Source of the DNA: Candidatus Latescibacterota bacterium
GTDB taxonomy: Bacteria > Latescibacterota > UBA2968 > UBA8231
Direction of reading: 5' to 3'
DNA: 64,000 nt
NCBI GenBank assembly: GCA_965261395.1
Contig: OZ253462.1
Location: 5,376,001 to 5,440,000, forward strand
Made by a program: the position numbers and the translations under genes
Part shown: piece by piece, positions 11,069 through 51,714 of the stretch
How the letters are laid out: each line of letters opens with the position of its first letter
How positions within the stretch are numbered: the first letter of the stretch is position 1
Notes under the pieces: model-generated
The model's input: the letters and a program-made list of their open reading frames with translations, nothing else
What the model was told of the DNA's origin: nothing
Database searches by the model: none

Positions 11069-12676
11069 CTAGTCCCCATCTAGCCCGGCGGCGTGGCGGC
11101 CTGCAGCCGGATCGCCAGCCGCGTAGTACGTGCCCGCGTCGGCCCACAGCATGACCGGGGTGGCGATGGGGCCGTTGCGGGCCTCGACTTGGTGGCCGCG
11201 CCGCGCTAGTTCGTCCCGGACATTCGCATCGACGGCCGAGCTGATGGCCAGCGAGCCAGCCTGGATGAACGTCTGCTCGCGCACCGGATTGGGGTCAAAC
11301 GAGTCCTCGTGATGGTCCGTGGCAAAGCGCGGCGCAACGACCGCTTCGGCCGGCTGCATCCCAAACTCCACAAAGTCGAGCAACAGGTTCAAGGTGGCCT
11401 GATCTTGCAGATCGCCGCCAGCCACGCTGATGGCCAACACGGGTGCACCGTCTTTGAGCACCATTGTGGGGGTCAGGGTGATGCGGGGCCGCTTGCCCGG
11501 CGCAATGCAGTTGGGGTGTCCGGGGGTCGTGTTGAGGCTGCGCAGGCGGTTGCCATACGAGACGCCCGTGCTGCCGGTGCCGCCGGCGTGATAGACATTC
11601 GCGCTCGGCGTGGCCGAGACGACCATGCCCCAGCGATCGGCTACCACGCACGTGGTCGTGCCGCCGACTCCGGGCCGGAACGCGCCGCCCTCCTGCACTG
11701 CCTTCATGCCGAGCGGATCACCAGGGCGGGCGTCCAGCGCAGCTTGCCCCATGTCGATCAGGGGCTGCCGGAGCTGGGTATATTCGTCGGACAGCAAGGC
11801 GTTCATGGGCACATCCACGAACAGGGGGTCGCCGTAGTGCGCGTCGCGGTCGGCCATGGCCAGCTTGATGGCTTCGACGACCGCGTGGACGTAGTCGGCC
11901 GAGCACTGCCCCATACCTTTGAGATCAAACCCTTCGAGCAGGCGCAGGGCTTGACACAGATAAGGGCCTTGAGTCCACGGGCCGCATTTGTACACTTGGT
12001 AGCCCCGATAATCGACTGCCACCGGCTCTTCGATCAAAGTCCTATGAGCGGCCAGATCCGCGCGGCGCAAAAACCCGCCCTGCTCCACGTAGAACGCCTC
12101 CAAGTCTTCGGCTATATCGCCGTGCTCGGCGCGGCGGCCATAGAAGTGATCGCAGGCTGCTTGCAGCTTCTCTTGGCGATCGCCGGTGGCGCGGTGCTCC
12201 TCCTCCACCATGCGCCGCAGCGTCTGCGCCAAGTCGGGGTGCCACGCTTCCTCTCCTTCGTCGAGCAGGGCCAAGGTCGGCGCAACAATCGCGGCAAAGC
12301 TCTGCGTGCCGTAGTGCTGCAAGAGGGTAATACACAAATCCACGACCGACGGCACCGGAGCCATCTTGATGTCGCGGTCTGGGATGCCGTGCTCCATGTA
12401 CCAAGCAATAGCTTCCGGCGACAGCGGCGCGCGCCCCTGGCCGGACAGCGACTTGACCGCTTTCCCGTCCCAGACGAGCACCGGCACTTCCCCGCCGATG
12501 GAGCAGGCCCCGTGATCGGTGACGTTGAGCGCGAGAATCGCGCCGGCCGCGGCATCGGCCGCATTGCCGCCCGCGCCGAGAATTTCAATGCCAGCGGCTA
12601 CAGCTCCAGCACCGCCGGCCGCAATGACGCCGGTTTTGCTCTCGGCCTGCCAGCCGATCTGATCTACCCTACTCAT
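11069..12676 (-). CDS. Gamma-glutamyltransferase family protein
   Basis: AAAGGAG RBS before ATG 12676. GGNAADAA, AMADRDAHYGDP, Thr nucleophile GGTTTCVVAD, PGKRPRITLTP. Confidence 0.88.
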   Translation of the reverse strand: MSRVDQIGWQAESKTGVIAAGGAGAVAAGIEILGAGGNAADAAAGAILALNVTDHGACSIGGEVPVLVWDGKAVKSLSGQGRAPLSPEAIAWYMEHGIPDRDIKMAPVPSVVDLCITLLQHYGTQSFAAIVAPTLALLDEGEEAWHPDLAQTLRRMVEEEHRATGDRQEKLQAACDHFYGRRAEHGDIAEDLEAFYVEQGGFLRRADLAAHRTLIEEPVAVDYRGYQVYKCGPWTQGPYLCQALRLLEGFDLKGMGQCSADYVHAVVEAIKLAMADRDAHYGDPLFVDVPMNALLSDEYTQLRQPLIDMGQAALDARPGDPLGMKAVQEGGAFRPGVGGTTTCVVADRWGMVVSATPSANVYHAGGTGSTGVSYGNRLRSLNTTPGHPNCIAPGKRPRITLTPTMVLKDGAPVLAISVAGGDLQDQATLNLLLDFVEFGMQPAEAVVAPRFATDHHEDSFDPNPVREQTFIQAGSLAISSAVDANVRDELARRGHQVEARNGPIATPVMLWADAGTYYAAGDPAAGRHAAGLDGD

Positions 12677-12914
12677 GTGTTGCTCCTTTTCGAAAAGAAG
12701 ATGTGCCGCGCTCAATTATAATCGTCGGGTCCGGCACTAGGCCGAAAGTCGAGAGGTCTTCGCCCTCTATATGCAGCGCGACCGCTTCGCGGAGGTTGGC
12801 CAAGGTTTCGTCCAAAGTGACGCCTTGCGTTACAACGGCTAGCTCGACGCACTCGGCAACGTAGTGGGTCTCGCCCGATCTGATGAAGGCTTTGATCGTG
12901 TGTTGCAGGTTCAT
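12669..12914 (-). CDS. HicB-like antitoxin, probably C-terminally truncated, no HicA partner
   Basis: GAAAGGAG RBS. YVAECVEL..VTQGVTLDETLANLREAVALHIEG is the HicB N-terminal fold. The C-terminus reads through the GGT leader. Confidence 0.7.
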   Translation of the reverse strand: MNLQHTIKAFIRSGETHYVAECVELAVVTQGVTLDETLANLREAVALHIEGEDLSTFGLVPDPTIIIERGTSSFRKGATHE

Positions 12915-13050
12915 TTGACTCCTTTCCGAGTGAGCACCGCGCTCAATATCGCCTTGTAAGAGCGGTCTGTCGAGTCTAGTGATGGAGGGACGCTCCCCTT
13001 CCACGTGGAGCGGGCCAATATCCAGGCTTCAAATAAGAGAAAATTCGATT

Positions 13051-13260
13051 ATGTCTCAACATCCCGTTATATTTATAGGTTCGCTACGGTGCCGCGCCGC
13101 AGTGCTGTCCGTTGCCTTTCTCGACCGCCAGACAGAAAAAATCGGCGCGCTGGCAGCAAAAATCGAGGCCGCTACGAACGATCTGCAAGAGTACCGTTCC
13201 GTCCTCATCACCAACGCTGAGACCGGCAAAATTAACATGAGAGAGAACGCTGCTTTATGA
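13051..13260 (+). pseudogene. hsdS: C-terminal remnant of type I restriction-modification specificity subunit
   Basis: FLDRQTEKIGALAAKIEAATNDLQEYRSVLITNAETGKINMR matches the conserved terminal helix of HsdS. No TRD upstream. Stop overlaps the next ATG (ATGA). Confidence 0.65.
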
Positions 13261-13643
13261 ACATTGACTCTATATACTTCAAGGGATATAGCTGTTTCAA
13301 AAAGAAGTGGGCTGGCTTCGATACAATCAAGCCGATCAACGTCATCATTGGACGCAATAACTCCGGAAAATCCCATCTTTTGAACTTGGTTGAATCACTA
13401 TACGATGCCAGGCTATCCCACCATGAATGGCAGACTCAGTGCCACGGTGTGTTAGACGAGGAATCGCTAAAGAAAGTTTTTCCAGAAAGGCGAAGGGATA
13501 CAAGTCAAAACTTGAATGCAGCTCTCGTGTTCAGCGACGTACAGCCTTTAGTCGGCGAGAAGCTAATATGGGAAGTGGCCCCAAGCCGGTCCGAGTCGCC
13601 ACCGCATGGATACGGATTGCAGGTATCGAGTTTAAGGTTCCCA

Positions 13644-13793
13644 GCTTTCTCATCAGAACAATCAAGCAATATCCCTTTAGCAGTTGAGGAGATGCTGAAA
13701 AGCGCAACGCACCAGTTTAGCTACTCACCAGAACAATCAGGAAATATCCCCTCAGGGATTCATAACATGCTACGAGATACAACACACCAGTTT
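13644..13793 (+). repeat. Degenerate 75-bp (25-aa) tandem duplication inside the OLD ATPase
   Basis: CAGAACAATCA at 13654/13729 and CACCAGTTT at 13710/13785. Peptides SSEQSSNIP..EMLKSATHQF and SPEQSGNIP..NMLRDTTHQF. Confidence 0.8.
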
Positions 13794-13990
13794 CGTACGG
13801 CGTCATTCTGCAGACTCCTTGCGGACCGGGATATCGAGACTGAACTAGAAGATATAGAGATGGAACTTGGCCGAGACGGTCAAGGAGCTACAAATATAAT
13901 ACGTCGGCTCATTCTAACATCTGACGAGCGATTCTCAAGAGAAGTTATCCAAGAAGAACTTCTGGCCGCGCTGAATTTAATATTTGGAAG

Positions 13991-15175
13991 GGCTTTGGTG
14001 CATGAATTGGTGTTTTTTTCGGTTGATCGGTTGAATAAAAACAGGCTCCTCAGTAGATTGAGCACGACTTTCGCCAAAAAACCCATGCTTTCTCGTCCAA
14101 GGAACCTGTCATGGCCAACCTATCGTCTTGCCCCTCTTCCGTCAAGCCTGGTCGCTCGCCTCGCCGTCGCTCCAACGTCGTGTACCGGGTACGTAATTGG
14201 GCCGACTATGAGGCCGGGCTGCAACAGCGCGGTAGTCTGACGGTGTGGTTCACGCCCCAGGCCGTCGAAGCTTGGTATTATCAAGGGCCGCCTCAGCGGG
14301 GGGCGCAATATACCTTTTCGGAGGTCGCCATCCAAACGGCGTTGACGCTGCGTCTTTTGTATCACTTGCCCCTACGCCAAACCGAGGGGTTTGTCGCTTC
14401 GGTGTTGGCCCTGATGGGCTTGGATCTGCGGGTGCCCGATCACACGACCCTGTCGCGCCGTCAGGCGGGTTTAGCCGTGGCGTGGCCGCCCCAGCGGGGA
14501 GACCAACCGATGCACTTGGTGGTGGATTCGACCGGGCTGAAAGTGTATGGCGAAGGCGAATGGAAGGTGCGTCAGCACGGCTGGAGCAAGCGGCGCACGT
14601 GGCGCAAATTGCACCTCGGGGTTAATGAAGCCACCGGCGAGATCGTCGCGCAGACCTTGACGACGAATAGCCACGATGATGCGGGGCAGGTGGAGCCGTT
14701 GCTGGCACAGATCGAGGCCCCCGTGGAGGCGTTGGGCGGCGATGGGGCCTATGACAAACGCAAGGTGTTCAAGGCGTTGGCCGCGCCCGAGCAGGGGGCA
14801 CCTATTCATCCGATCATTCCGCCGCGCAAGGACGCCAAAATCGAGCAACATGGCAACACCAACGCCGAGCCGTTGCCCCGCGATGAGACGATTCGAGCCA
14901 TCCGCAAACGGGGCCGTCGAGGTTGGAAACACGAGAGCGGCTATCATCGACGCTCGGTAGCCGAAACGCAGATAGGCCGCTACAAACAGATACTTGGTGA
15001 CACCTTGCGCACCCGAACCCTAACCAACCAACAGACCGAAGCGCGGTTGGGCTGTGCCTTGCTCAACCGGATGCGGGCGTTGGCGAAACCTGAGTCCTAT
15101 CCGCTAACCAAAAAAGCGTAAATCACACGCGAAAGAAGCCAACACGGCCCCGACCGGTTTTCATGCAACAAAGCC
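13991..15175 (+). mobile_element. IS5-family (IS903-like) insertion sequence, 1185 bp
   Basis: IRL GGCTTTGGTGCATGAA; IRR reverse complement GGCTTTGTTGCATGAA (15/16). 9-bp target duplication ATTTGGAAG at 13982-13990 and 15176-15184. Confidence 0.95.
14111..15121 (+). CDS. IS5-family DDE transposase
   Basis: NWADYEAGL, PDHTTLSRR, VDSTGLK, RRTWRKLH, GDGAYD, GYHRRSVAE. Confidence 0.95.
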   Translation: MANLSSCPSSVKPGRSPRRRSNVVYRVRNWADYEAGLQQRGSLTVWFTPQAVEAWYYQGPPQRGAQYTFSEVAIQTALTLRLLYHLPLRQTEGFVASVLALMGLDLRVPDHTTLSRRQAGLAVAWPPQRGDQPMHLVVDSTGLKVYGEGEWKVRQHGWSKRRTWRKLHLGVNEATGEIVAQTLTTNSHDDAGQVEPLLAQIEAPVEALGGDGAYDKRKVFKALAAPEQGAPIHPIIPPRKDAKIEQHGNTNAEPLPRDETIRAIRKRGRRGWKHESGYHRRSVAETQIGRYKQILGDTLRTRTLTNQQTEARLGCALLNRMRALAKPESYPLTKKA

Positions 15176-16357
15176 ATTTGGAAGTGATGGCCAGTTTTCA
15201 AATATCCAAGTACAAGTTCACGATGATAGGGCAGACAAACTAAAGGGCCATTGGGAGGTCTGTCTTCACGAAAAGAAAAAGGGTTGGGTTCCCCTCAGCA
15301 AATCGGGAAGCGGCTTGAAAACCATTATTCTGGTTCTACTTAATCTACTGGTCATTCCCAAAATTGAGAATAAGGAGAAATCTCAGTTCATATTCGCTTT
15401 TGAGGAACTTGAAAACAACCTCCATCCGGCCCTCTTACGGAGGTTATTCAAGTATCTTGAGGACTACGCAGTCAACAAAAAAGCGACGATCTTCCTGACG
15501 ACCCATTCGAGCATCGCCCTCGACTTTTTCGGTGTATCTGATAATGCCCAGATTATCCATGTGTCCCACGATGGCGAGTCCGCCCATACGACAACCGTCC
15601 CCACTCATTTTGGCCATCTCAGGATAATCTCCGAACTGGGATCAAGACCGTCAGATTTGCTCCAAGCGAATGGACTCATTTGGGTAGAAGGCCCTACTGA
15701 CCGCATTTATCTCAACCATTGGATTGAGCTTTACACTCAGGACCGTCCTCAAGGCAGCCTTCGAGAAGGTCGCGATTATCAGTGCGTATTTTACGGCGGT
15801 GCGCTACTAGCAAAAGTCCAGTTCACGTCGCCCGAAGACGAGACCGCAGAACTCGCCAACCTGTTCCGAATCAATCCCAATTTCTTCGTCGTGTGTGACG
15901 GCGATAGAGAGACCGAGGATTCTGACCTAAAGCCGAGAGTGAAGAGAATTCGCGAGGAAGTCGAAAAGATAGATGACGAGCGCATTTGGATCACTGACGC
16001 CAAGGAAATTGAGAACTACCTTCCTGGTTCTGTCCTCTCAGAGGTCACAGGATTCCCATCGTTGCCAGATCCCGGACAATATGAAAGTTGGTCGTCATAT
16101 ACCGAAAATCATGTTCAGGGAAAGAGCATAGACAAGGTGGACTTAGCCATTTCGAGCACCCAGACCCAGTATATGACAAAGGAAGTAATGGAGAAGCGAT
16201 TCGATTGGACGGAACAGATGGAACAGATCATCAAGCACATTGGCAGGTGGAACGAAAATGGCTCCCCGGAAGGACCGTAACCGGCAAGACATTGAGCAAC
16301 AATGGGGGAAATTTCAGCAGAGACGTCAGCAATGCTAAATCGAGGCGACGCTCCTTG

Positions 16358-16909
16358 CTAGAAAATCTCGTTTAAGCCAACGGAGAAACCTGTGAGTGTG
16401 GACGAGGTCATCGTTTGCCCCTCGCCGTAGATGGCCTCCACCTCGAAGGCACCTTCGCCGAGCCGCAGCACCGTCACCGTCCGGGCGTCCGAATCGACTA
16501 GCCAGTATTCCTTCACGCCATACTTGGCGTACAGGGCGCGTTTGAGCGTCCGGTCCCGCCCGGCAGTGGAGGGGGACAGGATCTCGACGACCAAATCCGG
16601 TGCACCGAGGACATTTGCGCCGCCGAGCAGCAGGTGCGCTCGCTCATTGGAGACGAACAATAGGTCCGGCTGTACCACATCCGTATTCGACAGCACCACG
16701 TCGCAGGGCGCGTGGAAGACCTCGCCTAAACCCCTCTCCTGTACGAAGCCATGGAGCAACGCTCCTAGCCGGATGCCAATTCTCTGGTGCTCTAGGTTGG
16801 GCACCGGGACCATAATCAACTCTCCGTCCAATAACTCGTAGCGCTTGTCCTCGGGGGTATGTTGGTAGTCCTCATAGGTGAACTTGACGGCTGGGTTGGG
16901 GCTGAGCAT
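16358..16909 (-). CDS. Uma2 family (DUF820) PD-(D/E)xK endonuclease
   Basis: YELLDGEL, VQPDLLFV, PDLVVEILSPST, GVKEYWLVD; AGGAGG RBS. Confidence 0.9.
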   Translation of the reverse strand: MLSPNPAVKFTYEDYQHTPEDKRYELLDGELIMVPVPNLEHQRIGIRLGALLHGFVQERGLGEVFHAPCDVVLSNTDVVQPDLLFVSNERAHLLLGGANVLGAPDLVVEILSPSTAGRDRTLKRALYAKYGVKEYWLVDSDARTVTVLRLGEGAFEVEAIYGEGQTMTSSTLTGFSVGLNEIF

Positions 16910-16994
16910 ATCGCCCTCCTCTCATCGCTGGATGTGCGGTTTACGGACGCCTAAATATCGGTCAACCAGCTACCAATAATCTAACCACCCCGCC

Positions 16995-17062
16995 CTACTC
17001 TGCGAGCCGCCCAAGATCATCCGGCCCCACGTGTTGTCGTCGTCGCCATTGCCGTAGATCAT
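16995..17062 (-). repeat. Orphan duplicate of the 3' tail of the 17655-18470 gene
   Basis: 17011-17062 matches 17693-17744 at 51/52 nt, and 16995-17014 matches 17655-17674 at 18/20 including the TAG. A 22-bp internal deletion lies between CCAA microhomologies. Confidence 0.92.
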
Positions 17063-17105
17063 GAGCAAGTTCGTCTTTTGCATTTTACACCTGAATGAGG
17101 GTGAT

Positions 17106-17642
17106 TCACTGCATCAATCGGTCAACCTGAGCCAAAATTTCATCGGCTGCCGGCCGGTCGGAGATGCTTCTCCCTACGTATTGCCATTCGATGTCGCCCC
17201 CAGGCGAGACGATGACCGCGGACGGCGTCGCAACGCCGTCACGCAGCAGGTTGTAAACTCCGTAGCCTTTGGCTACCTCGGCGTCCTTGTCTGACAGAAT
17301 GGCGAATTCAGCGCCGGTGAGCTCCGCCATTTTCAGCGCGTCGGCGATGTCATCAGTGCTGATCGCCGCAAGCGACACATTGCGCTTTAGAAACTCAGGA
17401 TACAACTCTACCAACTCACCTAGTTGGCTCCTACAGACACTTCAGAAGAATCCTCTGTAGAACAGCAGTACCGCCGCCGTGCGGTTGTCGAGTAAGTCGG
17501 ACAGGGAAACAGAAGTCCCATCCGCCGCCGGTAAGGTGAACGCAGGCGCTCGACCTCCCGAGGAGACCGGATTGGAGTTGCAGCCGACGAGGGCCATGAG
17601 GGTCGCTATTGCCAAGGGCAGCAGCACTGCTCTATGGTGCAT
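17106..17642 (-). CDS. AhpC/TSA (peroxiredoxin-like) lipoprotein, predicted selenoprotein with UxxC
   Basis: Two track ORFs are in frame across the TGA at 17442-17444: FYRGFF-U-SV-C-RSQL. Hairpin GCCAACT-AGGTG-AGTTGGT lies just 3' of the UGA. Lipobox LVGC; thioredoxin-fold APAFTL and LSD motifs. Confidence 0.82.
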
Positions 17643-17654
17643 TTTCTTTCTCCT

Positions 17655-18470
17655 CTACTCGGCGAGTCGCCCAATCGGCGTCCGCGGGCCGACCAAGATC
17701 ATCCGGCCCCACGTGTTGTCGTCGTCGCCGTTGCCGTAGATCATAAAGTGGCCGCCGTACGCGCCGCCGTCCGGGTCGGTATGGACGATTTCCATGCTGT
17801 ATTCGTCGCCTACTTGCGGCGGCTGCCAACGGGGGTCGCTCTGGCCAAACGTCGGAGCCATCTCGACGCGGGCTTCGATGATGAAATCGGCCGCGCTCCG
17901 GCCCCAAGGATCCATGCGCACCACGTAGTCGCAAGCGGCTTCGGGGATCGGTTCTTCAATGTAGCTCTGGCCAGGTGCGCCGTGCCGCCACCAAGCGTTT
18001 TGCGGGGTGCGCTGTGGGTCGGCGACAAAGCAGAAGGCATTGTCGCCTTGGCCGAAGCGCTCGTTGGCCCGGTCGCGCGGGCCTTCCATAAACCAGCAAA
18101 TCGCATCCTTAAAATACCAACGCTTGTCCGCCGGATCGGGGTCGTCGAGGTCGTTGACGTTGTCCCAGACCTCGGCCCCGAAGTAAAAGTTGTGCGCGTC
18201 CCAAGCAATGTAGTAGCGGGCGCTCAAGTCGTCTTCGAGGTGCGGCTCATTGCCGTGGTCGGTGAGGCGATTGCGCGCGCCGCGATCGAGGCGGTAGAAG
18301 CCAGCCTCGCTGATGCGGCGCATGTCCCAGACTCCGTCGTTGTGAGCGCGGTCCTTCCACTCGGCGAGGTCGCCGTCAATGGTCGGGGCCGTCTCCAACA
18401 GGGGGGCGTTGATGTTCATGTCCGCGCACGCGGCAGAGGCGGCGAGCAAAATCGCGCACAAGGGCAGCAT
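17655..18470 (-). CDS. Secreted CBM9/DOMON-like sugar-binding protein
   Basis: Signal peptide MLPLCAILLAASAACA. PTIDGDLAEW and AWDAHNFYFGAEVWD resemble CBM9_1. Confidence 0.65.
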   Translation of the reverse strand: MLPLCAILLAASAACADMNINAPLLETAPTIDGDLAEWKDRAHNDGVWDMRRISEAGFYRLDRGARNRLTDHGNEPHLEDDLSARYYIAWDAHNFYFGAEVWDNVNDLDDPDPADKRWYFKDAICWFMEGPRDRANERFGQGDNAFCFVADPQRTPQNAWWRHGAPGQSYIEEPIPEAACDYVVRMDPWGRSAADFIIEARVEMAPTFGQSDPRWQPPQVGDEYSMEIVHTDPDGGAYGGHFMIYGNGDDDNTWGRMILVGPRTPIGRLAE

Positions 18471-18481
18471 AGATTTTCTCC

Positions 18482-19228
18482 TCAGCGGTAGTCTTCGGCT
18501 CGGTCCGCGGGCACAAAGCCCACCGTCTGGCGAGCGTGCTCCAAGTCGCGGTAGCCCCATTTGTTGTCCGAGTTGACGAAGAAGATGTCGAAGGGCAAGT
18601 CGAGAGGGGCGGCAAGGCACTTTTCGATCATCTGCACGGCGTCGCGCTGGCTGCACCAGACGCAGTATTCGCGGGAATGGGTTGGGCGGTTCTCCGGGTT
18701 GACGCGGCCAAAGCGCAGGCAGAGGACAGACATGCCGTAGGCCGAGGCGTATTCGCGTCCCAGCTCTTCGCCCCAGACCTTGCTGGCCGCGTACAGACCC
18801 GTTGGCCGCAGGGGTGATTGCGCCGTCAGCATTGACCACGTAGCCGGCACTTGGTCGTATTCCCCGGCCAAAAGCTCCTTGTATGGCGAGAGCGCGGTGT
18901 ATCCACCCATGACCGACCCACTGCTGGCAAAGAGGACGCGGCGCACTCCGGCCTCGCGGGCCGCGGCGAAAACATTGCCGGTACCCTGCAAGTTGGCACG
19001 GAAAATCGCCGGCAGGTCATTGGCGATGTGCGCGGCGAGATGGACGACCGCATCGATCCCGGCAAAGGCCGGCCGGATGGCGTCGAGATCGGCGATGTCG
19101 GCCTGGTGGCAGTCGATGTGCGGGAGCGGGCGGCGGTTGAGGGCGCGCAAGTTATAGTGCTTGCGCAGGCTGGCGCACGCGGCCGTGCCGATCAGACCTG
19201 TGGCACCCGTGATGAGGACGTTTTGCAT
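18482..19228 (-). CDS. NAD-dependent epimerase/dehydratase (uronate dehydrogenase-like extended SDR)
   Basis: ITGATGLIG, VVHLAA, FASS, YAASK. Confidence 0.88.
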   Translation of the reverse strand: MQNVLITGATGLIGTAACASLRKHYNLRALNRRPLPHIDCHQADIADLDAIRPAFAGIDAVVHLAAHIANDLPAIFRANLQGTGNVFAAAREAGVRRVLFASSGSVMGGYTALSPYKELLAGEYDQVPATWSMLTAQSPLRPTGLYAASKVWGEELGREYASAYGMSVLCLRFGRVNPENRPTHSREYCVWCSQRDAVQMIEKCLAAPLDLPFDIFFVNSDNKWGYRDLEHARQTVGFVPADRAEDYR

Positions 19229-42611: not shown

Positions 42612-42682
42612 AAATCGGCTACTCTACTTGGGGGATGGAGAAGATGTCCGGCACCCCGACCAGCATCCGACCAAACGAGTAG
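42608..42682 (+). pseudogene. N-terminal stub of a probable sugar phosphate isomerase/epimerase
   Basis: GAGGAG RBS and ATGA overlap with the PhyH stop. MKIGYSTWGM resembles TIM-barrel isomerase N-termini. Stops after 24 codons. Confidence 0.45.
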
Positions 42683-42686
42683 GTTG

Positions 42687-43892: not shown

Positions 43893-43958
43893 TCTTCTGG
43901 TGCCGACCGAGGGATCCGAAAGATATCCTGTTGCAATGGCGTGCCGATTGAGGCACTA

Positions 43959-45995
43959 CTATCGGCTTTGGCCAGCACCGCCGCGCTTATTCCGTCGTGC
44001 CCTTAGGCGATGCCTGCGGTGGCGATAGTTGGCCAAATCCTTGGCGAAACTCGACTCATCAGGTAGTAACTCCTGAGCCTTTTGAAAGGCGGACTCCACT
44101 TCACTACTGGAGGCATGGAGCCAGTCGAGGGTGCGGGCAAGTTCGCGCCACGCCCAAGCATGGCGATCGGGAGAGGCGTCTATCTGAATTATGCGCTCCA
44201 GCAATTCCCGGGCTTCGATGAGAAGACGCCGGTTCACTCCCTGCCACGATGGCTTTCTTTTTTTTTTGACCTGTTGCGCCAGTTCCATTTTAGTCTGAGC
44301 AAATTCAAGAAGCGCACGAGAATCACCCAATACCACATCGCCCGCTTGCTCGAAATAAAGATGCGCGGCCTGCGGACCGCGCAAACGGCGCGCCAGAATG
44401 GCCGTGGCGATGGCGTCCTGCGCTGAGACGACTTCGGACAGACCGCTGAGCAGACGCCGTGCATCGTCTTCTCTCCCATCCGTCAGAAGCGTCTCTATCA
44501 GCGTATTCGCTACGTTAGCGATAGCAATCCGTGGCCCTCGCTCACGGAATCTGGCAAACACGGCTTCAGCATCTTCCAATTGGCCTTGAGCCGCATATAG
44601 GCGAATCATCTCGATCGCCAGAACCGCGGACTCTTCGTTTGCCTCCCAAGCTCTCTGCACTCGCTCGAAAGCCTCTCTCGTACTCCCAACGGTGCTGAGA
44701 TAGGCTGCATCCTGTATGGCTGAAACAGCGGCGTACTCTGGATGAGCTGGTAGTGTTGCCCGGAAATAGGTTCGACTGGCATCAAAATCGAACTTTGGGG
44801 TCGGTGATCCGTTTTGCTTCATCGCGTCGTAGATTTGCGGCAAGCCCGTCAGGCGTCCCTCTGCAAGTTTGAGTTCCTTGAGGAACTCACCGATTCGCCG
44901 GTTGCGGGCTGGAACGGGCGGTACGGAGCCGCCCGGCGCTAGATGGTTCTCGTCAATACCGGAAACCGGGCCGGGATAGCTGATCACCTCAATACGGTCA
45001 GGATAGAGATACACCTTGGTCGGCTCGACGATGTCCCTATCATAACCTCGATGATAGACGGCGTTGACGAGCGCCTCCCGCAAGGCGATTTGTGGATAGC
45101 TGACCCATCCCCGCACTTGGCTGCGATCGCGCTCCTTCTGTAGGTGGGCGTGGAAAAAGCTCTCTAGGTAGTTCAGGCAGCCTCTCACCTGATCAGCAAG
45201 CGGGCCGCGAAAGAAACGCTCGGCCTGCACGCTCCCTGCACGACCCCCTGCAAACTGGACCACTTCGATTTTTGCACCGGCGAACCAACGCTCAGGATCT
45301 TCAGAAAAGAACAGCAAGGCGACGTTGCGAGGTGCCTCGTGGTCATTGACGGCTTTGGTTAGACGCATTCTCCGGTAGATTTCGAGGGAGTCCAGTTGAT
45401 GGTTGGGGCTGATGAGGCCACTTCCCACGTCGTGCAAGTGCTCCCGCACTTTGCCTTCGCGCAGATCCTCAACTTGCGCATCCAATGCCAGCCGATCATC
45501 CCAGGGAACACGGGCTGTTTGTTCAAGGAGCATTCCCAATTGGCCGCTCTTTTCGGCATCAACGGTAGCAGCTCCCACCCGTATCCAATACTTCCAGTTT
45601 CCCTCCGCATCCGGTGCGCGGTGCGGTCGGTTTTCGCTCGCCGGTACCCATACGACGAGGATGTGACGATCCTCTACCAATTCGGGAGAAAATATGGGGT
45701 CGTAAGATGGGTTCATGGCCTTGCATCGGCCACGCAGCCAGTTCTCCGCCCGCTCCATATCTTCGGCTCCAAGTCCGGCAGGTGGCAGAACAGCTCGACC
45801 ATCCTGTTCGGCGACACCGAGGACGACATAACCACCGTTCAGATTCTGGTGGTCGTTTGCGAACGCGCAAACGGTTTTTAGGACCTGGCTTCCCGTGGTT
45901 CGCTCATTCCAGCTTGCCTTGAACTCCACACGGGCCGATTCCACGGAGCGTTGGTGCAGAAGGTCATCGAGGTTGACGGAAAGGATGGTACTCAT
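43959..45995 (-). CDS. Schlafen/AlbA_2 + HATPase_c_4 protein with TPR-like C-terminus
   Basis: ESARVEFKA, CAFAND..GGYVVLGV; REALVNAVYHRGY, PDRIEVISYPG, RNRRIGEFLKEL; helical-repeat C-terminal third. Confidence 0.85.
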   Translation of the reverse strand: MSTILSVNLDDLLHQRSVESARVEFKASWNERTTGSQVLKTVCAFANDHQNLNGGYVVLGVAEQDGRAVLPPAGLGAEDMERAENWLRGRCKAMNPSYDPIFSPELVEDRHILVVWVPASENRPHRAPDAEGNWKYWIRVGAATVDAEKSGQLGMLLEQTARVPWDDRLALDAQVEDLREGKVREHLHDVGSGLISPNHQLDSLEIYRRMRLTKAVNDHEAPRNVALLFFSEDPERWFAGAKIEVVQFAGGRAGSVQAERFFRGPLADQVRGCLNYLESFFHAHLQKERDRSQVRGWVSYPQIALREALVNAVYHRGYDRDIVEPTKVYLYPDRIEVISYPGPVSGIDENHLAPGGSVPPVPARNRRIGEFLKELKLAEGRLTGLPQIYDAMKQNGSPTPKFDFDASRTYFRATLPAHPEYAAVSAIQDAAYLSTVGSTREAFERVQRAWEANEESAVLAIEMIRLYAAQGQLEDAEAVFARFRERGPRIAIANVANTLIETLLTDGREDDARRLLSGLSEVVSAQDAIATAILARRLRGPQAAHLYFEQAGDVVLGDSRALLEFAQTKMELAQQVKKKRKPSWQGVNRRLLIEARELLERIIQIDASPDRHAWAWRELARTLDWLHASSSEVESAFQKAQELLPDESSFAKDLANYRHRRHRLRARRNKRGGAGQSR

Positions 45996-46229
45996 TGAGA
46001 AGACATCCCTTTACGCGGGTTGGCGTCGCTATACATTTGTATAAAAAGATAATATGTCAGCGTCTAAGAGGCGCAAGTTTGACGACATAGCCCCTAGGAA
46101 TCTTGTACTATGTCAAGAATACAAAGCATTATACATAAAAGCTAAAAAGATAAATCAACTAAGGACCATTATTTATTGAAGTTTTTGCTTGGCCTATACC
46201 ATGATACCTCTTATTAAGAGTTTTAATTA

Positions 46230-49200
46230 ATGGCCCTGAACCCCATCGCCTACACTGAAAACGTCCTCAAGAGCTTCCTGCGCTACCAACTCACCGCGTA
46301 CCCTTTCGCGGATCAGCACCTACACGAGCAGATGCGCGAGCTTCTCTCTTTGAACAAAACTCGCCAATCGCCTCTCTTCAAAGGCCCCTACATCAGTCTT
46401 TCTCGCCCATTTCGACAAGGAGCGCCGATAGACGATCTCATCGGCGCAGGGTTGCTGCATCCGCATCTGCGCGAACGCATTCTGCGGGAAATCACCCATC
46501 TGTACAGCCACCAAGAGGCGGCGATTCGCTCCGTCGAAAGCGGTGGAGCGACGCTGGTTTCCACCGGCACCGGCTCCGGTAAGACGGAGTGCTTTCTCTA
46601 CCCCATTGTCAGCAAGTGTCTGCATTTGCGCGACGAAGGCGCGCCATCGGGCATCGCCGCGATCATAGTCTATCCGATGAATGCGCTGGCAGAAGATCAG
46701 TTAATGAGGCTCCGGTCGTTACTGGCAGGCACAGGCATCACGTTTGGGATGTATGTGGGCAAAACGCCGGAGTGGGAGAAGGATGTGGCCGGAGTGCGAC
46801 TGTCGGCGGGAGCGTCTCGGGCAGACTACGAAGCGCGGCTGGAACGCATCCGGGGCGAAGGCAGCGGCGAAACCGTCTATCCGGCGGAAGAGGTTTGTTC
46901 ACGCGAGGTGATGCGTACGCCCGGGCGGCAACCGCGCATTCTGCTTACCAACGTCAAGCAGTTGGAACTGTTGCTCACCCGGCAAACGGACGTGGAATTG
47001 TTCGCGGGGGCGCAGTTGCACCATCTGGTATTCGACGAAGCCCATACCTTCACCGGCGCGCTGGGCGCGGAGACAGCCTGCCTGATCCGCCGTCTGCGTG
47101 CGTTTTGCGGGCAGGGTACGGACGATACCGCCTGCATCGCCACATCGGCCACCATCGTCGATGTTCTGCGACCCGAAGCGGCGATAAACTTTGCTGCACG
47201 CTTCTTCGGTGTCGCGGAAGAAGCCGTAACAACGGTAGACGAAAACTACGAGAAGGAAGTGTGGGATGGCGTGCGTACGCTTCCCGCGCCACCGGCCGGG
47301 GATGCCGCCGAGCTGCTGGACCGCTGCGTTCAAGCAGTCGATGACGAGAAAGATCCAAACTCAGCCGTGCGCGCTGCCTATCGCGCTCTCGCCGGAGAAG
47401 ACTTGGGTGCCGGCAAGTGGCCGGAGGCACTGCACGAGGCCCTTTCCCGCAATGAGCTGGTGTACCTACTAAACGAAGAGTTGGCGTCCCCGAAAGCCCT
47501 CGACGCGCTTCCGGTAGCATTGCAGGAACGCATTGGGCGCACCGTCGCGGAAGCGGAAATCCTCGCCTGGCTGGCGCTTGGTGCCGCTGCCCGACGAGAC
47601 GGACGGCCCCTGTTGCGCCCGGTGGTACATGCGTTCGTTCGCGGAATCAGCGGCGCGGTGGTGACTTTTCCTGAAGACTGTGAAGGGCCAAAATTGTGGC
47701 TAGCGGCGGAGGATGAATGCGAACCGACGGCCTCACATGCCCACTTTCCCGTAACCACCTGCACGACCTGCGGGCAACACTACTTTGTCACTTTCCTCAA
47801 GGATTTCTCTTTTACCGGCAAAGAGCCTAGCGGCGGCGAAGCGGGGCCGGACGGCCCATATTGGCCACCTCTGGAAGAACCACACGGCGGCAAACGCGTA
47901 GTGCTGGTAGACAGGCTCATTGGCAGCAGCGACGATGATGATGATGGGCCAATCGAACGTACCGCCGCGTTGCATTTTTGCCGCTCTTGCGGTGCCGCCC
48001 ATCCCGATGACTTCTCGTACTGCCGCGCCTGCGGAGTGCCTGCAGGTGCAGTAGAACTTCATGCGGTGCGCTCGAACAACAAGAACTATCCCGGTTATAT
48101 CACTAGCTGTTTGTCCTGCGGTGCACAGGGACGGACCGGCATTCAGTACCGCGAACCGGCTCGACCCGTGCGAGCCATCAATGTCGCCGATGTCCATGTG
48201 CTGACACAGGACATGGTGCATCACTCGGAGCGTCCCCGGTTGCTCGTGTTCTGTGACAACCGCCAAGACGCCGCGTTTCAGGCCGGCTGGATGAAGGATC
48301 ATGCACGGCGTTTCCGGCTGCGGGCGCTGATGGCGGAAGGCATACAAGAGACCCCTCGCTCCATTGGCGACCTGACGGCTTTTCTGGATGCAACACTAGA
48401 GCAGGACGAGGCACTGTCCCGGGCACTGATCCCAGAGGTCTGGCAAGTTGCGCGGAAAGAAGGCCCAGGTGGGCAGCACGCCCAAGAACGCCGCAAGTTT
48501 CTGCGCATCCAGGTATTGCGCGAGGTGACGCTGTCATCCCGGCAGGCACTGGGCTTGGAGCCTTGGGGACGCCTGAAGGTGGACTACTACGGCTTGGACG
48601 CCTCGTTGCCGTGGATTCAGGAACTTGCCCATCGGTTGGCATTGCCGCCGGATGAACTGTGCGAGGGCGTCGCCGTAGCGCTCGACTACCTGCGCCGCAA
48701 ACGCGTCCTGTACGACCCGGAGCAGCCAATTTTCACGCGCTACTGGCAAGATGGCGACCGGGAGATACAACAAGGCTACCTGCCGGACTTCTACAACCCC
48801 GTCGCTACCAAGCTGCAACGCAGTGCCTTCGATAAGCAGCAGTTGGTGACACAATGGCTAAGCAATGGCGGCGACACCACCATGAGACAAATGGCGCGTA
48901 AATGGGGTGCTGAGGCCGAGGCCATTCCGGCGTTGCTTACTGGCCTGTTCGAGTTCCTCGTCGAACAGAAGCTGTTGACGCCAGTAACGCTTAAAGGATC
49001 GAGGGGCCGTGCGGTGCCGGGTGCCAGTGAGGTGTACCAAGTCAACGCCGATCTGCTGCGCCTGAGCCCCAACAAGGGCGCGTGGCGGTGCGAACGCTGT
49101 CGGCGAACTACCACGCGCCGCCCTCCCGGTGATCGCTGTCCGGCATGGCGTTGCTATGGGGTACTGGCCTGGATTGCCGAGGACGAGGACGACTACAACT

Positions 49201-51614
49201 TGCAGCTCCTCGATGGTGCCTACGCCATGCTGCGCCCGGAGGAACACACGGCCATGGTGCCGGCTGAGACGCGCGAACGCCTCGAAAATCTGTTTAAGGG
49301 CGAGTCCGATGCGGTCAACTGTTTCGTGTGTACACCGACGCTGGAACTCGGCATCGACATCGGTCAACTCGACTCAGTGTTAATGCGCAACGTGCCGCCG
49401 TTGCCGGCCAACTACTGGCAGAGAGCAGGCCGCGCTGGGCGTCGTCATCGCATGGCCGTGGACATCGCCTATTGCCGCCCGGTATCCCACGACCGCGCCT
49501 ATTTTGCGGAGCCACTAAAATTGCTCGCTGGGCGCATCGATCCGCCGGCCTTCAACCTGCGCAACAACGTCATGGTCGCCAAGCACGTTCACGCCACGGT
49601 GATCACGCGGTTGCACCAATGCGCACACACACCAGCCGACCACGCTGTGCTTGCCGCCTGTCTACCGCGCCGGGTGTCTGCGTATCTGTTCGAGAACAGC
49701 GAGATTCGCACCGCGCCATTCGATTTGAGTGGATTGCGCGACCTCATCGACCGCCATGCGGACGATCTCGTAGCCTATGTGGTAGATGTCTTCCATGAAA
49801 GCTGGCCGGATGCGGATGCAGATGCCACCACGCCGGAGGTGCTTGAGGCCTATGTCAAAACATTTGTAGACGGACTGGAAGAAGTGATAAAGCGGCTTAA
49901 GCGGCGTCTCGATTGGGGCATGGGTCAGATCAGGCGTCTGAACGAAACCCGCGAACGGCAAGGCACGCTCAGACCGGGAGACGACGTACTATTCCGCCGT
50001 TGCGATAATCTAGTGCGACGCCTCAAAGGCACCGCTAGCCCCACGCGGCGCGAAGCCGAAGGCCACGACGGTTTCAACACCTTTAGCGTGCTCGCCGCAG
50101 AAGGCTTCCTGTCTGGCTATGGTTTGGAAACCGGCTCGGTAATGGGATGGGCCGAGATTCCTTTCTGGCGCACCGGTGCCATGGACTTTGTGCTGCCGAG
50201 ACCGCCAGCTACGGCGCTGCGCGAATATGTGCCGGGCAATCTCATCTACGCCAACGGACACCGTTTCGTAGCACGGCGCTTCCATCGCAACATTGATGAG
50301 GAACGTTCGGAGACACCGGTTTACGCAGTCTCCGTGGAACGCCAAGCAGTAAAGTCCAGCGACATGGGCGCGGGACTGAGCGCGCAAACGCTGCGCGCCA
50401 TCGCCGTATGTGATACAGACCTAATTCACACTTCGCACATCTCCGACGAAGAAGAACTGCGTTTTCAGATGGGCGTGGCCACGTATGGGCTGGAATTGGA
50501 TCAGCATAGCGGGGGACGTGCATTCCGATGGGGCGCACGCCCCGTCCACCTGCGTCGGGGCGTGCGCTTTCGGCTCCTGAACGTTGGTGCCTCACGCACG
50601 GTTCAGCGGGGCGAACTTGGCTACCCAGTGTGTACGGTGTGCGGCCAGAGCGTCTCGCCACTATCGTCGGAACGCCAGCTTCAACACTTCCGCGCCTTCC
50701 ACGCCGAACACTGCCATCAGGAGCCGACGTCCATCGGCTTCTACGCCGACGTGACAGCGGATGTGCTGTCGCTGCCCAATTGCGAAAACGCCGTCACTGC
50801 GTATAGCGTGATGGAAGCGTTGCGCTCTGCCGCCGCTCGGGTACTCGACATGCACCTAGAGGATTTGCAGATCCTCGTTATCGGACGCACCGAACGTGAC
50901 GATGTCGATGCCCTGCTATGGGATCCTATGCCCGGCGGTTCCGGTTTGCTGGATCGCCTGTGCGAACGCTTCGCCGACGTGGTGGAGATCGCACGGGAAG
51001 TGGTCAACGACTGCCCCTCGGAGTGTGAGAGTTCCTGCATCGACTGCCTACAGACCTTCCGCAACGCGTACTACCACACACGTCTAGATCGTCATTTGGC
51101 CGGCAAGCGTATTGACACATGGGGCCTCCATCTGGCATTCGACCACGACATACCGCCCCTACAGCCTCCCACTCCGCCTGCCAAAGATGCGGTCCCGGTC
51201 AATGACGCGGAAACGCGCCTACGCCACCTGTTGCTGGCAGCAGGATTCCCGGAAGGCAGCCGCAACGAACAGATACGCCTAGATCGCGTACTCGGCACGA
51301 CGACCCCGGATGTCATATACCGCGCCGCCGACTCCGATGAAGACGAAGCTATATGCATTTATCTTGATGGCCTGAGCCGCCATCTGCACGGCAACCCAGA
51401 AACCGCCGAGCACGACCGCGCTATCCGCTCTTGGCTCCGCAACCACGGCCGTGAGGTCATCGAAATTGCCGCCACCGACCTGCACGACCAAGCAGCAATG
51501 ACCCATCACTTCCGCCGACTTGCCAACTACTTGGGTGACAGGAAACTCAGACAGCACATACGCGAGAACCAAGACTGGTTTTTGCCCTCTGATGCTGAAA
51601 TCCCTAGCGTATGA
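46230..51614 (+). CDS. Large SF2 DEAH helicase with Zn fingers, DUF1998 and C-terminal nuclease-like domain (DruE-like architecture)
   Basis: TGTGSGKT, YPMNALAEDQ, DEAH, SAT, TLELGIDIG, QRAGRAGR. Several CxxC pairs; DUF1998-like C..C.SSCIDC; terminal TTPD...IYLDG..H. Confidence 0.85.
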   Translation: MALNPIAYTENVLKSFLRYQLTAYPFADQHLHEQMRELLSLNKTRQSPLFKGPYISLSRPFRQGAPIDDLIGAGLLHPHLRERILREITHLYSHQEAAIRSVESGGATLVSTGTGSGKTECFLYPIVSKCLHLRDEGAPSGIAAIIVYPMNALAEDQLMRLRSLLAGTGITFGMYVGKTPEWEKDVAGVRLSAGASRADYEARLERIRGEGSGETVYPAEEVCSREVMRTPGRQPRILLTNVKQLELLLTRQTDVELFAGAQLHHLVFDEAHTFTGALGAETACLIRRLRAFCGQGTDDTACIATSATIVDVLRPEAAINFAARFFGVAEEAVTTVDENYEKEVWDGVRTLPAPPAGDAAELLDRCVQAVDDEKDPNSAVRAAYRALAGEDLGAGKWPEALHEALSRNELVYLLNEELASPKALDALPVALQERIGRTVAEAEILAWLALGAAARRDGRPLLRPVVHAFVRGISGAVVTFPEDCEGPKLWLAAEDECEPTASHAHFPVTTCTTCGQHYFVTFLKDFSFTGKEPSGGEAGPDGPYWPPLEEPHGGKRVVLVDRLIGSSDDDDDGPIERTAALHFCRSCGAAHPDDFSYCRACGVPAGAVELHAVRSNNKNYPGYITSCLSCGAQGRTGIQYREPARPVRAINVADVHVLTQDMVHHSERPRLLVFCDNRQDAAFQAGWMKDHARRFRLRALMAEGIQETPRSIGDLTAFLDATLEQDEALSRALIPEVWQVARKEGPGGQHAQERRKFLRIQVLREVTLSSRQALGLEPWGRLKVDYYGLDASLPWIQELAHRLALPPDELCEGVAVALDYLRRKRVLYDPEQPIFTRYWQDGDREIQQGYLPDFYNPVATKLQRSAFDKQQLVTQWLSNGGDTTMRQMARKWGAEAEAIPALLTGLFEFLVEQKLLTPVTLKGSRGRAVPGASEVYQVNADLLRLSPNKGAWRCERCRRTTTRRPPGDRCPAWRCYGVLAWIAEDEDDYNLQLLDGAYAMLRPEEHTAMVPAETRERLENLFKGESDAVNCFVCTPTLELGIDIGQLDSVLMRNVPPLPANYWQRAGRAGRRHRMAVDIAYCRPVSHDRAYFAEPLKLLAGRIDPPAFNLRNNVMVAKHVHATVITRLHQCAHTPADHAVLAACLPRRVSAYLFENSEIRTAPFDLSGLRDLIDRHADDLVAYVVDVFHESWPDADADATTPEVLEAYVKTFVDGLEEVIKRLKRRLDWGMGQIRRLNETRERQGTLRPGDDVLFRRCDNLVRRLKGTASPTRREAEGHDGFNTFSVLAAEGFLSGYGLETGSVMGWAEIPFWRTGAMDFVLPRPPATALREYVPGNLIYANGHRFVARRFHRNIDEERSETPVYAVSVERQAVKSSDMGAGLSAQTLRAIAVCDTDLIHTSHISDEEELRFQMGVATYGLELDQHSGGRAFRWGARPVHLRRGVRFRLLNVGASRTVQRGELGYPVCTVCGQSVSPLSSERQLQHFRAFHAEHCHQEPTSIGFYADVTADVLSLPNCENAVTAYSVMEALRSAAARVLDMHLEDLQILVIGRTERDDVDALLWDPMPGGSGLLDRLCERFADVVEIAREVVNDCPSECESSCIDCLQTFRNAYYHTRLDRHLAGKRIDTWGLHLAFDHDIPPLQPPTPPAKDAVPVNDAETRLRHLLLAAGFPEGSRNEQIRLDRVLGTTTPDVIYRAADSDEDEAICIYLDGLSRHLHGNPETAEHDRAIRSWLRNHGREVIEIAATDLHDQAAMTHHFRRLANYLGDRKLRQHIRENQDWFLPSDAEIPSV

Positions 51615-51714
51615 CGAAATGATTCACACCCTAAGAAAAGCGACAGCTATGAAAAAGAGCCGATTGGCATCAGTAGGTGACGAGGTCAACGCCGCCCGCG
51701 ACAATCCCTAACCT

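Follow-up and report, generated by a model that had tools for sequence, protein, structure and literature searches.

Results

Displaced gene tails in a Latescibacterota genome

We describe a 64-kb stretch of DNA ('the window': bases 5376001-5440000 of a single-contig, 6.55-Mb genome of ~60% G+C) in which conserved genes are followed first by accessory genes, which we call cargo, and then by a stranded second copy of their own 3' end, which we call an orphan tail. The two clear cases lie behind a gene of the phytanoyl-CoA dioxygenase family (PhyH) and behind a gene with a weak CBM9-like match (gene X). A preliminary description of the window had placed four accessory blocks between copies of host gene ends: the repeats at gene X (pair 1) and at PhyH (pair 3) are true displaced tails, with the intact gene upstream, then cargo, then the stranded tail, and with relatives that carry the empty configuration joined at the repeat; pair 4 bounds a real insertion/deletion (indel) of 220 bp, and pair 2 is at chance level. 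The four repeats, as was stated there, have no sequence in common.

In a protein search, close relatives of the window genome were public metagenome-assembled genomes titled Candidatus Latescibacterota bacterium. Our comparisons draw on 30 other species of the same genus, many of them assembled as a single contig. The window genome is labelled G000 and the relatives carry other G numbers; L numbers denote loci from a scan of the gene tails of G000, and X numbers denote sequencing runs.

The PhyH locus

The PhyH gene (41619-42611, plus strand, 330 amino acids) serves as the anchor of pair 3 (repeat family D16; locus 41619-53631). Its tail contains a 23-nucleotide (nt) core (42576-42598) that recurs at 51679-51701, with 19 exact bases and 22/23 matches overall, and a cargo of 9.1 kb lies precisely between these two copies, both of which are on the plus strand. 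Beyond the core, the two copies run into different gene ends: that of the intact gene is designated 'type A' (EEHA-stop), while the orphan tail (51679-51711, plus strand), which is still in frame, consists of the second core and a 'type B' end (DEVNAARDNP-stop). The left end of the cargo (42599-42682, plus strand) is made up of the type A end and a 24-codon stub of a xylose-isomerase-like TIM-barrel gene (MKIGYSTWGM...). There follow a gene with Schlafen/AlbA_2 and HATPase_c_4 domains (42684-43892, plus strand), a second such gene that also has TPR repeats (43959-45995, minus strand), and a gene for a DruE-like DEAD/Helicase_C/MZB helicase of 1794 amino acids (46230-51614, plus strand; PADLOC E = 9e-106). 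The right end is a 10-codon stub of a GFO/IDH/MocA gene (MKKSRLASVG; 51649-51678, plus strand), fused to the orphan tail. Behind the latter stands a DUF6785/DUF6784 gene (51715-53631, plus strand), which is the native neighbour of PhyH in those relatives that have an empty site.

Such an empty site is seen in G011, G020 and G004: position 42598 runs straight into 51679 through a shared 23-nt core, and PhyH has a type B end (..DKP-stop) that is followed at once by the DUF6785 gene. It follows from these joints that the piece stranded in the window is the ancestral end of PhyH. The type A end is also present in G022, G012 and G009, where it lies ahead of other genes, and a full-length MocA gene stands behind PhyH in G012, G009, G001 and G002. 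Homology between the window and its relatives stops at 42598 in nine genomes and at 42613-42615 in six. Another instructive arrangement is that of G022, in which the same joint between MocA stub and core is followed by the type A end, the TIM-barrel stub and the first Schlafen gene: this is a circular permutation of the window's cargo, and the block is inserted behind a deacetylase gene, at the place where the MocA gene normally starts.

Both junctions of the 9.1-kb cargo are spanned by Logan contigs (X15, records 12 and 14; X16, record 22) whose sequence is identical to that of the window; they come from two studies, one run of which may be the source of the genome itself. For window positions 40001-54000 we also found, in the runs X15, X16, X1 and X4, the alternative joints 42614 to 51740, 43871 to 51746, 43160 to 46230 and 43880 to 46229. 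These occur at lower depth than the window's form and in the same runs; we conclude that several related strains or species share the samples. The joint from 43871 to 51746 corresponds to the arrangement in G022, and run X4 contains diverged relatives of the cargo in addition to alternative joints. Runs with a small share of window sequence are labelled as sponge, coral or marine metagenomes; X4 alone among them was examined, and we draw no claim about habitat.

The DUF6785/DUF6784 gene behind PhyH is the third copy of its kind in the window: two membrane-protein paralogues stand in tandem at 7011-10987, 1975 nt apart, with 78-87% identity over the two 300-nt stretches reported.

The gene X locus

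Pair 1 lies within a locus (16358-18839) in which every feature is on the minus strand. Gene X (17655-18839, 394 amino acids) is conserved, with 86-93% nucleotide identity, in 29 of the 30 other genomes of the genus. Its functional 90-nt tail (T1, 17655-17744) encodes MIYGNGDDDNTWGRMILVGPRTPIGRLAE-stop. The cargo, which starts 14 nt past the stop codon of X, is a single gene for a lipoprotein-type, AhpC/TSA-like (peroxiredoxin-like) protein of 178 amino acids (17106-17642). Then comes the orphan tail of X (T2, 16995-17062), a 68-nt copy located 592 nt downstream of the 90-nt end of X; it is identical to T1 at 65/68 positions and has lost 22 nt through an internal deletion that is flanked by TTGG repeats. 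A repeat search reports this pair as 64 nt at 94% identity (family D4). The three substitutions between T1 and T2 are all synonymous in frame (AAC/AAT, CGA/CGG and GCC/GCA), as the preliminary description had noted. Furthest downstream is a gene for an Uma2-family nuclease (16358-16909; PADLOC candidate PDC-S03), the resident downstream neighbour in a haplotype that we designate class II.

The two contexts that meet in the window are found separately among the relatives: X is directly followed by the peroxiredoxin-like gene in 11 genomes, and in 10 genomes the tail of X is followed by a spacer and Uma2, with the peroxiredoxin-like gene beyond Uma2, so that the order of these two genes is swapped between the genome classes. 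The spacer and Uma2 gene behind T2 are the same sequence as that behind the intact X tail in these 10 relatives; the order in the window (X, peroxiredoxin-like gene, orphan tail, Uma2) therefore amounts to both contexts in series. The joint itself reads ...CTTGCTCATG followed immediately by ATCTACGGC, and its left part is common to G009. Three nucleotides, ATG, constitute a microhomology between the sequence that follows the peroxiredoxin-like gene and a methionine codon of the X tail. A tail-like remnant is also present behind the peroxiredoxin-like gene in G010 and G022.

The AhpC/TSA-like gene has a further feature: an in-frame TGA at codon 67, within the motif FYRGFF-U-SVC. Both this TGA and a hairpin 15 nt downstream of it (CCAACU-AGGUG-AGUUGG) are kept in the 10 relatives that have the AhpC/TSA-like gene, and the genome encodes a tRNA-SeC (871108-871206) and a SelB match above cut-off. 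The fold of the hairpin, which resembles a selenocysteine insertion sequence, is no stabler than that of shuffled sequences (z = 0.01). The gene probably encodes a selenoprotein, a reading that we base on the fact that the TGA and the hairpin sequence are conserved, and not on fold stability.

Genome-wide scan for orphan tails

A scan of the whole genome was strongly positive. The last 100 nt of each of 5254 greedily called open reading frames (ORFs) was compared with the 15 kb downstream and the 15 kb upstream, the controls being a random window and the downstream 15 kb read on the opposite strand. At a score of >=17, a copy that lies outside same-strand ORFs is present downstream of 102 tails and upstream of 24; the random windows gave 18 matches and the opposite strand 20. 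Removal of multicopy sequences leaves two-copy orphan tails at 76 downstream loci (an upper bound; see Discussion) compared with 14 upstream. This polarity is specific for tails: 150-nt queries yielded 71 downstream and 7 upstream copies of gene tails, versus 21 and 25 for gene heads, and with 400-nt queries the corresponding numbers were 49 and 6 for tails, versus 18 and 21 for heads.

The 76 loci share further properties. The homology between tail and orphan ends at the stop codon (median +1 nt; within 30 nt in 52/76), and the orphan extends for a median of ~98 nt upstream of the stop (interquartile range 54-152; n = 76); repeat lengths range from 11 to >300 nt. Identity is mostly 80-97% (range 69-100%, median ~90%). 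The mismatches are distributed over codon positions 1, 2 and 3 as 106, 84 and 215, a third-position share of 53% (215/405); 67% of substitutions are transitions, they occur in all directions, and there is no bias for adenine. The gap between an orphan tail and the next gene matches native spacing (median 36 versus 25 nt), with many overlaps of -4 or -1. The cargo has a median length of 2.8 kb, comprises one to three genes, and has a G+C content of 56.6%, versus 59.3% for the genome.

None of the 76 cargos overlaps a match to a tyrosine or serine recombinase; the entire genome has four matches to the former and none to the latter, and not one of these is near cargo. One cargo of the 76 is near a tRNA, and IS-type (insertion sequence) ORFs occur in 2/20 annotated cargos. 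At the four boundaries we detected no motif across the 76 loci (maximum 0.15 bit at any position). The preliminary description had also proposed that insertion places cargo under host operon transcription; as a rule, this does not hold, because the first cargo ORF is co-directional with its anchor at 62% of loci, compared with 68% for all neighbouring genes, and 119/197 cargo ORFs lie on the anchor strand.

Orphan tails also occur elsewhere in the phylum: we counted eight downstream and none upstream in 800 kb of G022, nine and two in 800 kb of G036 (another family of the class), and two (one of them at chance score) and one in 400 kb of G049 (another class). Expressed as a share of ORFs, this is ~1.4% in G000, G022 and G036, versus 2/327 in G049.

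Cargo content and stacked haplotypes

The anchors at the 20 best-scoring loci are ordinary enzymes and transporters: GFO/IDH/MocA proteins four times, PhyH twice, and, once each, a TIM-barrel protein, an acetate kinase, an aminotransferase and others. A PADLOC scan of the cargo from 14 of these 20 loci returned defence matches in nine, namely Mrr-type PDC-S02 with a caspase; a Dsr1-like SIR2 gene beside an RmuC-type gene; type I restriction-modification (R-M); a Tiamat-like gene; SoFic; an RmrA-like gene; a PD-Lambda-5-like gene with a methylase; type II R-M; and Septu PtuAB. R-M cargo is present at L058, L068 and possibly L065; R and M genes are absent from the cargos within the 64-kb window. 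More generally, the DNA just behind many conserved genes is hypervariable in this lineage, with differing cassettes, mostly of defence genes, in each species.

We compared six true-tail loci with the relatives (PhyH, X, L051, L070, L062 and L054), and at 6/6 the two downstream haplotypes that are stacked in G000 are found singly elsewhere. The repeat of L051 is 129 nt long and 99% identical; at least 12 genomes have an empty site with a single copy, and the stacked form recurs in G002. A Mrr cassette with the same ends (2540 and 3793-3796) lies downstream of the L051 anchor in G000, G002 and G005, and upstream of it in G012, G041 and G013. At L070, where the anchor is acetate kinase, 16 genomes lose homology to G000 at position -22 from the stop codon, which is exactly the boundary of the repeat; four others (G001, G012, G018 and G046) share both the Septu cargo and the last 22 nt of the acetate kinase of G000, and G007 and G043 have the empty site. 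The cassette haplotype of L062 is found in 11 genomes and its flank haplotype, empty of cargo, in G021; at L054, five genomes have the cassette haplotype and G012 that of the flank. In G000, both are in series at each of these loci. A single repeat copy without the insert is thus present in a related genome at PhyH, L051, L070 and L062. Between haplotypes, identity is 86-96% in the anchor and the DNA downstream of it is unrelated; homology is confined to one side.

L051 also adjoins L068 (G000:C1:2184934-2192930), where one GFO/IDH/MocA gene has orphan tails of its two neighbours on both sides. A defence cassette precedes each of these tails, with type II R-M at one flank and Mrr plus a caspase at the other. 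Those neighbours are convergent or co-directional.

Other insertions and deletions in the window

Pair 4 is an 11-nt direct repeat (12706-12716 and 12937-12947, minus strand) on either side of a 220-bp, hicB-like segment (12717-12936). The repeat is exact, and one of that length is expected by chance in 64 kb; nonetheless, G022, G010, G011, G012 and G001 all lack the segment, and in each of them 12716 runs precisely into 12937 across a single repeat copy, so pair 4 bounds a real indel. A longer form, hicA-hicB-like and flanked by a similar repeat of 11-13 nt, is present in G009 and G013.

Pair 2 consists of a putative tail copy in an epimerase gene (28440-28460, plus strand) and a partner at 32604-32624, which match at 20/21 bases. 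That it is a relic of a gene tail, as the preliminary description had it, is not supported by three further results: none of 10 relatives has an empty allele, the epimerase, GGT and MR_MLE genes being syntenic in all 10; where the downstream copy survives, in four relatives, just 14-16/21 of its bases agree with the epimerase tail of the genome concerned; and the score, 18, is at chance level, since 17/5226 gene tails reach it against a random 15-kb window. In the deeper in-genus species G014, G015, G016 and G023, GGT-like and MR_MLE-like matches of 65-69% identity are on different contigs, which speaks neither for nor against an ancient relic.

No integrase, attC site or tRNA had previously been seen among the window's blocks; this is borne out for integrases and tRNAs (attC folds were not searched for specifically), but two IS elements in the span had gone unmentioned. 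One, IS5-like (13988-15175, plus strand), has no part in the tail mechanism; it splits a gene for a GajA/AriA-like AAA_15 ATPase (13257-16280) into two halves, 13257-14240 and 15315-16280, and is missing at this site in G010, G011 and G009. The other, IS630-like (33058-34143, plus strand; HTH and DDE_3 ORFs), adjoins a Bor-like lipoprotein gene (32709-33095) and is absent from the site in the relatives compared: G022, G010, G011, G020 and G001 join 33057 to 34144.

The window contains two more single-gene cassettes that vary in presence, an AAA_22 ATPase (22369-23983) and a DUF4143/AAA_14 ATPase (30186-31411; PADLOC candidate PDC-S01). Each sits exactly between a stop codon and the next ribosome-binding site, and neither has a flanking repeat of >6 nt; hence not every cassette here bears the scar.

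Two full-length RecA matches are encoded in the genome (G000:C1:61827-62603 and 1783324-1784094). Two copies are likewise found in G067, G068 and G071, of the same family, and one copy in other families of the phylum.

Discussion

A proposed additive stacking of haplotypes

The order of gene, new end, cargo, old tail and native neighbour, the empty alleles in relatives, the polarity toward tails, and the lack of recombinases in the 76 cargos and of motifs at their boundaries are what we observed. We hypothesize that displaced tails are scars of additive haplotype stacking: a homology-anchored exchange combined with an illegitimate join, or a template switch, between co-resident relatives, the products being filtered by selection in a compact genome. 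We regard this interpretation as about evenly poised between right and wrong. Firstly, DNA of a co-resident relative would pair with the resident chromosome through a shared conserved gene, the homologous anchor. The far end of the incoming block, which there has no homology, would consequently be joined illegitimately at a microhomology, either by homology-facilitated illegitimate recombination (HFIR) or by a replicative template switch, at a distance of a few tens to hundreds of bases ahead of the resident's stop codon. The outcome is the order observed, namely an intact gene with the donor's end, the donor's cassette, the stranded resident tail and the resident downstream genes: a cassette is gained and none is lost. 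Bearing in mind how tightly this genome is packed, selection may spare only those products in which the upstream gene is still complete and the downstream gene still has its native junction in front. Such a filter would account for the duplication of tails but not of heads, and for the stop codon as the point where homology ends. The composite could subsequently spread among relatives through ordinary homologous recombination in flanking genes, and it may be lost again by recombination between the two tail copies.

Judging from the company that it keeps in relatives, the new end of the gene is part of the incoming block: the type A end of PhyH, and the acetate kinase end that is linked to Septu, argue that end and cargo arrive as one block from an alternative haplotype found in other species. 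The joints also look illegitimate, given the ATG microhomology at the X joint and the MocA stub that is fused to the PhyH tail. As to how foreign DNA might enter, the genome encodes ComEC and lacks Ku, neither of which is decisive, and uptake by natural transformation is a candidate route only.

Several observations weigh against this interpretation. Both 23-nt PhyH cores in the window carry AAC at a site that reads CGC or CAC in the relatives aligned; the two copies must either both derive from the resident or have been homogenised, and the shared variant fits duplication in situ or a circular or tandem intermediate. Repeats at several loci are nearly identical (129 nt at 99% in L051, 156 nt at 97% and 50 nt at 100%), and G005 has, at L051, the order anchor, Mrr, anchor head fragment; for L051, duplication in situ fits these data better than a diverged donor allele does. 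The order of cassettes is circularly permuted between relatives at three loci, a hint of a circular or tandem intermediate. The preliminary description had anticipated a switch in the density of single-nucleotide polymorphisms inside the anchor gene; we saw no change of nearest relative along 2.8 kb of the PhyH anchor, G022 being closest throughout (93-98%), a result that is uninformative because G022 shares part of the cargo. An uncalibrated estimate for the neutral decay of one copy puts the third-position share at ~45%, so that the 53% which we observed is just moderately higher. Laboratory HFIR is reported mostly to delete recipient DNA rather than to duplicate it, whereas here the resident tail is duplicated. 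Tandem-paralogue remnants that are not cassettes (BlaR1 at L055; MacB-type at L060 and L069) are among the 76 loci, which is why that number is an upper bound. Finally, the comparison of rates covers G000, G022, G036 and G049, all of one phylum.

Alternative explanations

Some of these points would be accommodated by strict insertion with long target duplication, in which the insert ends up between two copies of the resident tail, or even of the whole gene, one of them redundant and later reduced by decay to a short tail. The trigger could be incoming DNA, or a break of both strands by a defence nuclease, that opens the chromosome with widely staggered ends; alternatively, replication could re-enter upstream. 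Insertion of this type has reportedly been described for R-M systems by Nobusato et al. 2000, and it shares with our loci an insert free of mobility genes, long and variable direct repeats that are single-copy in a relative, and R-M cargo (here at L058, L068 and possibly L065). In the portions of the paper that we cite, Furuta, Abe & Kobayashi 2010 report R-M systems inserted with long, variable direct repeats and without mobility genes, by a mechanism that was unknown; some of these repeats overlap gene 3' ends (Figure 3 legend), and repeats of >30 bp were the criterion (PMC2853133). Pair 1 (64-90 nt) and most of our genome-wide loci (median ~98 nt) exceed that length, and pairs 3 (23 nt) and 4 (11 nt) do not. 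The near-identical repeats favour target duplication, as do the single-copy state of L051 in relatives, the head fragment of a second anchor copy that G005 retains behind Mrr, the G000-specific variant in both PhyH cores, and the tails of gene X, in that T1 and T2 differ less from each other than from G009 or G010. That both repeats are copies of the target fits L051 and the shared AAC of PhyH, yet the ends of PhyH beyond the core differ, and the end of acetate kinase travels with its cassette. In both instances, where the repeat stops short of the stop codon, the new last codons are a recognised alternative allele of that gene's end (the type A PhyH end in three other contexts; the acetate kinase end with Septu in four genomes) and not random insert sequence. 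The median repeat identity of ~90%, which is like between-species divergence, and the excess of third-position substitutions point the same way, and on balance we consider target duplication unlikely.

Somewhat less probable still, to our minds, is a self-propagating circular cassette, an integrase-free analogue of the integron cassette: recombination between tail copies would free a circle of one tail plus cargo, and a RecA-mediated single crossover into a homologous tail, or another short homology, would integrate it and regenerate the flanking repeats. The joint that such a circle should produce is present in G022 (MocA stub, core, type A end, TIM-barrel stub, first Schlafen gene). The Mrr cassette on either side of the L051 anchor in different genomes, the swapped order of the peroxiredoxin-like gene and Uma2, and the two encoded RecA copies are also consistent with it. 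However, tandem duplication followed by deletion explains the same permutations. Furthermore, because a cassette goes with one particular anchor gene, homology in the tail offers it no way to reach new loci. Repeats of 11-23 nt are shorter than is usual for RecA exchange. The joint from 51678 to 42599 that a circular or tandem PhyH cargo would produce is not among the joints listed for the four runs, although contigs cannot show rare forms. A bolder version of this idea, which we consider doubtful, is that gene tails are generic landing pads of a dispersed, integrase-free cassette system, whose defence cassettes would cycle through circular or tandem intermediates and regenerate the tail repeat at each re-entry behind a conserved gene. 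If true, the entire chromosome of these sponge-associated Latescibacterota would be the equivalent of a dispersed integron, with housekeeping recombination or an unrecognised trans-acting factor to drive it.

The preliminary description had offered two readings, HFIR or an undescribed dedicated pathway; the former, as part of haplotype stacking, stays the best fit, and the latter fares poorly. A trans-acting enzyme that recognises gene ends, be it a recombinase, a transposase-like protein or a nuclease encoded elsewhere, could account for the strong polarity to tails only, for the sharp clustering of homology ends at the stop codon, and for the higher frequency of orphan tails in G000, G022 and G036 than in G049. 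We nevertheless view it as very improbable: the 76 loci have no motif or conserved position at their boundaries, the repeats lack a common sequence and vary from 11 to >300 nt, the few tyrosine recombinase matches in the genome are remote from cargo, the joints include truncated pieces of unrelated genes from the neighbourhood, two other cassettes of the window lack flanking repeats of >6 nt, and there are published precedents (those parts of PMC2853133 and PMC5361080 on which we draw). An assembly artefact, namely the strain-chimeric joining of two haplotypes in a metagenome-derived genome, is scarcely credible despite the mixed haplotypes seen at lower depth in the same runs, given that window-identical contigs from two studies bridge both junctions of the 9.1-kb cargo (even if one run may be the source), that the relic joints recur in independently assembled relatives (the stub-core joint in G022, the remnant behind the peroxiredoxin-like gene in G010 and G022, the stacked L051 in G002), and that orphan tails bear substitutions and deletions of their own.

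Four known types of system were considered and rejected. A diversity-generating retroelement with variable and template repeats does not apply: no locus has adenine-specific mismatches, and the annotated cargos have no reverse transcriptase. Neither does a site-specific integrative element, there being no integrase in the cargos and no conserved core across the 76 loci. Integrons and clusters of attC sites lacking an integrase (CALIN) were set aside in that no recombinase is near cargo and no boundary motif is shared, with the attC fold not searched for specifically. Displacement proper of the Rhs, contact-dependent inhibition (CDI) or type VI secretion system (T6SS) kind was rejected in that the anchors (PhyH, CBM9-like, GFO/IDH/MocA and others) are not polymorphic toxins.

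Relation to known systems

Some prophages, integrative and conjugative elements and genomic islands insert at the 3' end of a gene and supply it with a substitute end. Our loci resemble them in having an intact gene, an element, and the displaced original end as a direct repeat; on the other hand, there is no integrase in 76 cargos, no conserved core, and a cargo of just one to three genes (median 2.8 kb). HFIR, reportedly described by de Vries & Wackernagel 2002, Prudhomme et al. 2002 and Meier & Wackernagel 2003, offers another parallel: a one-sided anchor in a conserved gene, a related strain as donor and no need of a dedicated enzyme, to which the joint at gene X adds a microhomology at the far end. 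In the sections cited here, Kirchberger et al. 2017 propose HFIR for the displacement of T6SS effector ends (PMC5361080), and the same text credits Jackson et al. 2009 with a model for displacement of Rhs C-termini. As in the orphan arrays of Rhs, CDI and T6SS, a new 3' module stands behind a conserved 5' part, the old 3' end is pushed downstream, and no integrase is involved. Unlike in those arrays, our anchors have ordinary metabolic roles (PhyH, GFO/IDH/MocA, TIM-barrel, acetate kinase), the cargo is made up of separate genes instead of alternative toxin tips, and the displaced piece is 20-300 nt long with no function of its own. The published R-M insertions differ from our loci in several respects: the cargo here also includes Septu, a DruE-like helicase, SoFic, a Tiamat-like gene, Mrr and non-defence genes, and ~70 loci occur in one genome with a polarity toward gene tails. 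Given these precedents, of which long target duplication of R-M systems, Rhs/T6SS tail displacement and HFIR come closest, displaced tails are not categorically new; what differs is the scale (~1.4% of ORFs), the breadth of cargo, the polarity, and the direct evidence of a donor-allele gene end at two loci.

A further parallel is with hotspots that are free of mobile genetic elements: in both cases, variable and defence-rich spots lie between conserved genes, there are no integrases, and turnover proceeds through housekeeping recombination. In the part of their paper on which we rely, Oliveira et al. 2017 find that half of hotspots lack mobile elements, and propose double crossover in the flanking core genes (PMC5635113); Johnson et al. 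2023 are cited here for hotspots of this kind that are diversified via flanking core-gene recombination (PMC10250203). Many hotspots of acquired genes, defence islands included, are without mobile-element machinery, and the accepted double-crossover model, as presented in the portion cited (PMC5635113), explains replacement of content, which leaves no scar, and not addition. The tails described here record additive events that this model leaves unexplained: they are physical scars of addition that recur dozens of times, and the genus offers ~30 mostly closed genomes, with co-resident relatives in the same samples. The long-standing question of long target duplication that is raised in the cited parts of PMC2853133 becomes tractable in this genus through comparative reconstruction. 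Moreover, a gene tail that is repeated within 15 kb downstream, outside any ORF, provides a simple signature of recently gained defence cassettes.

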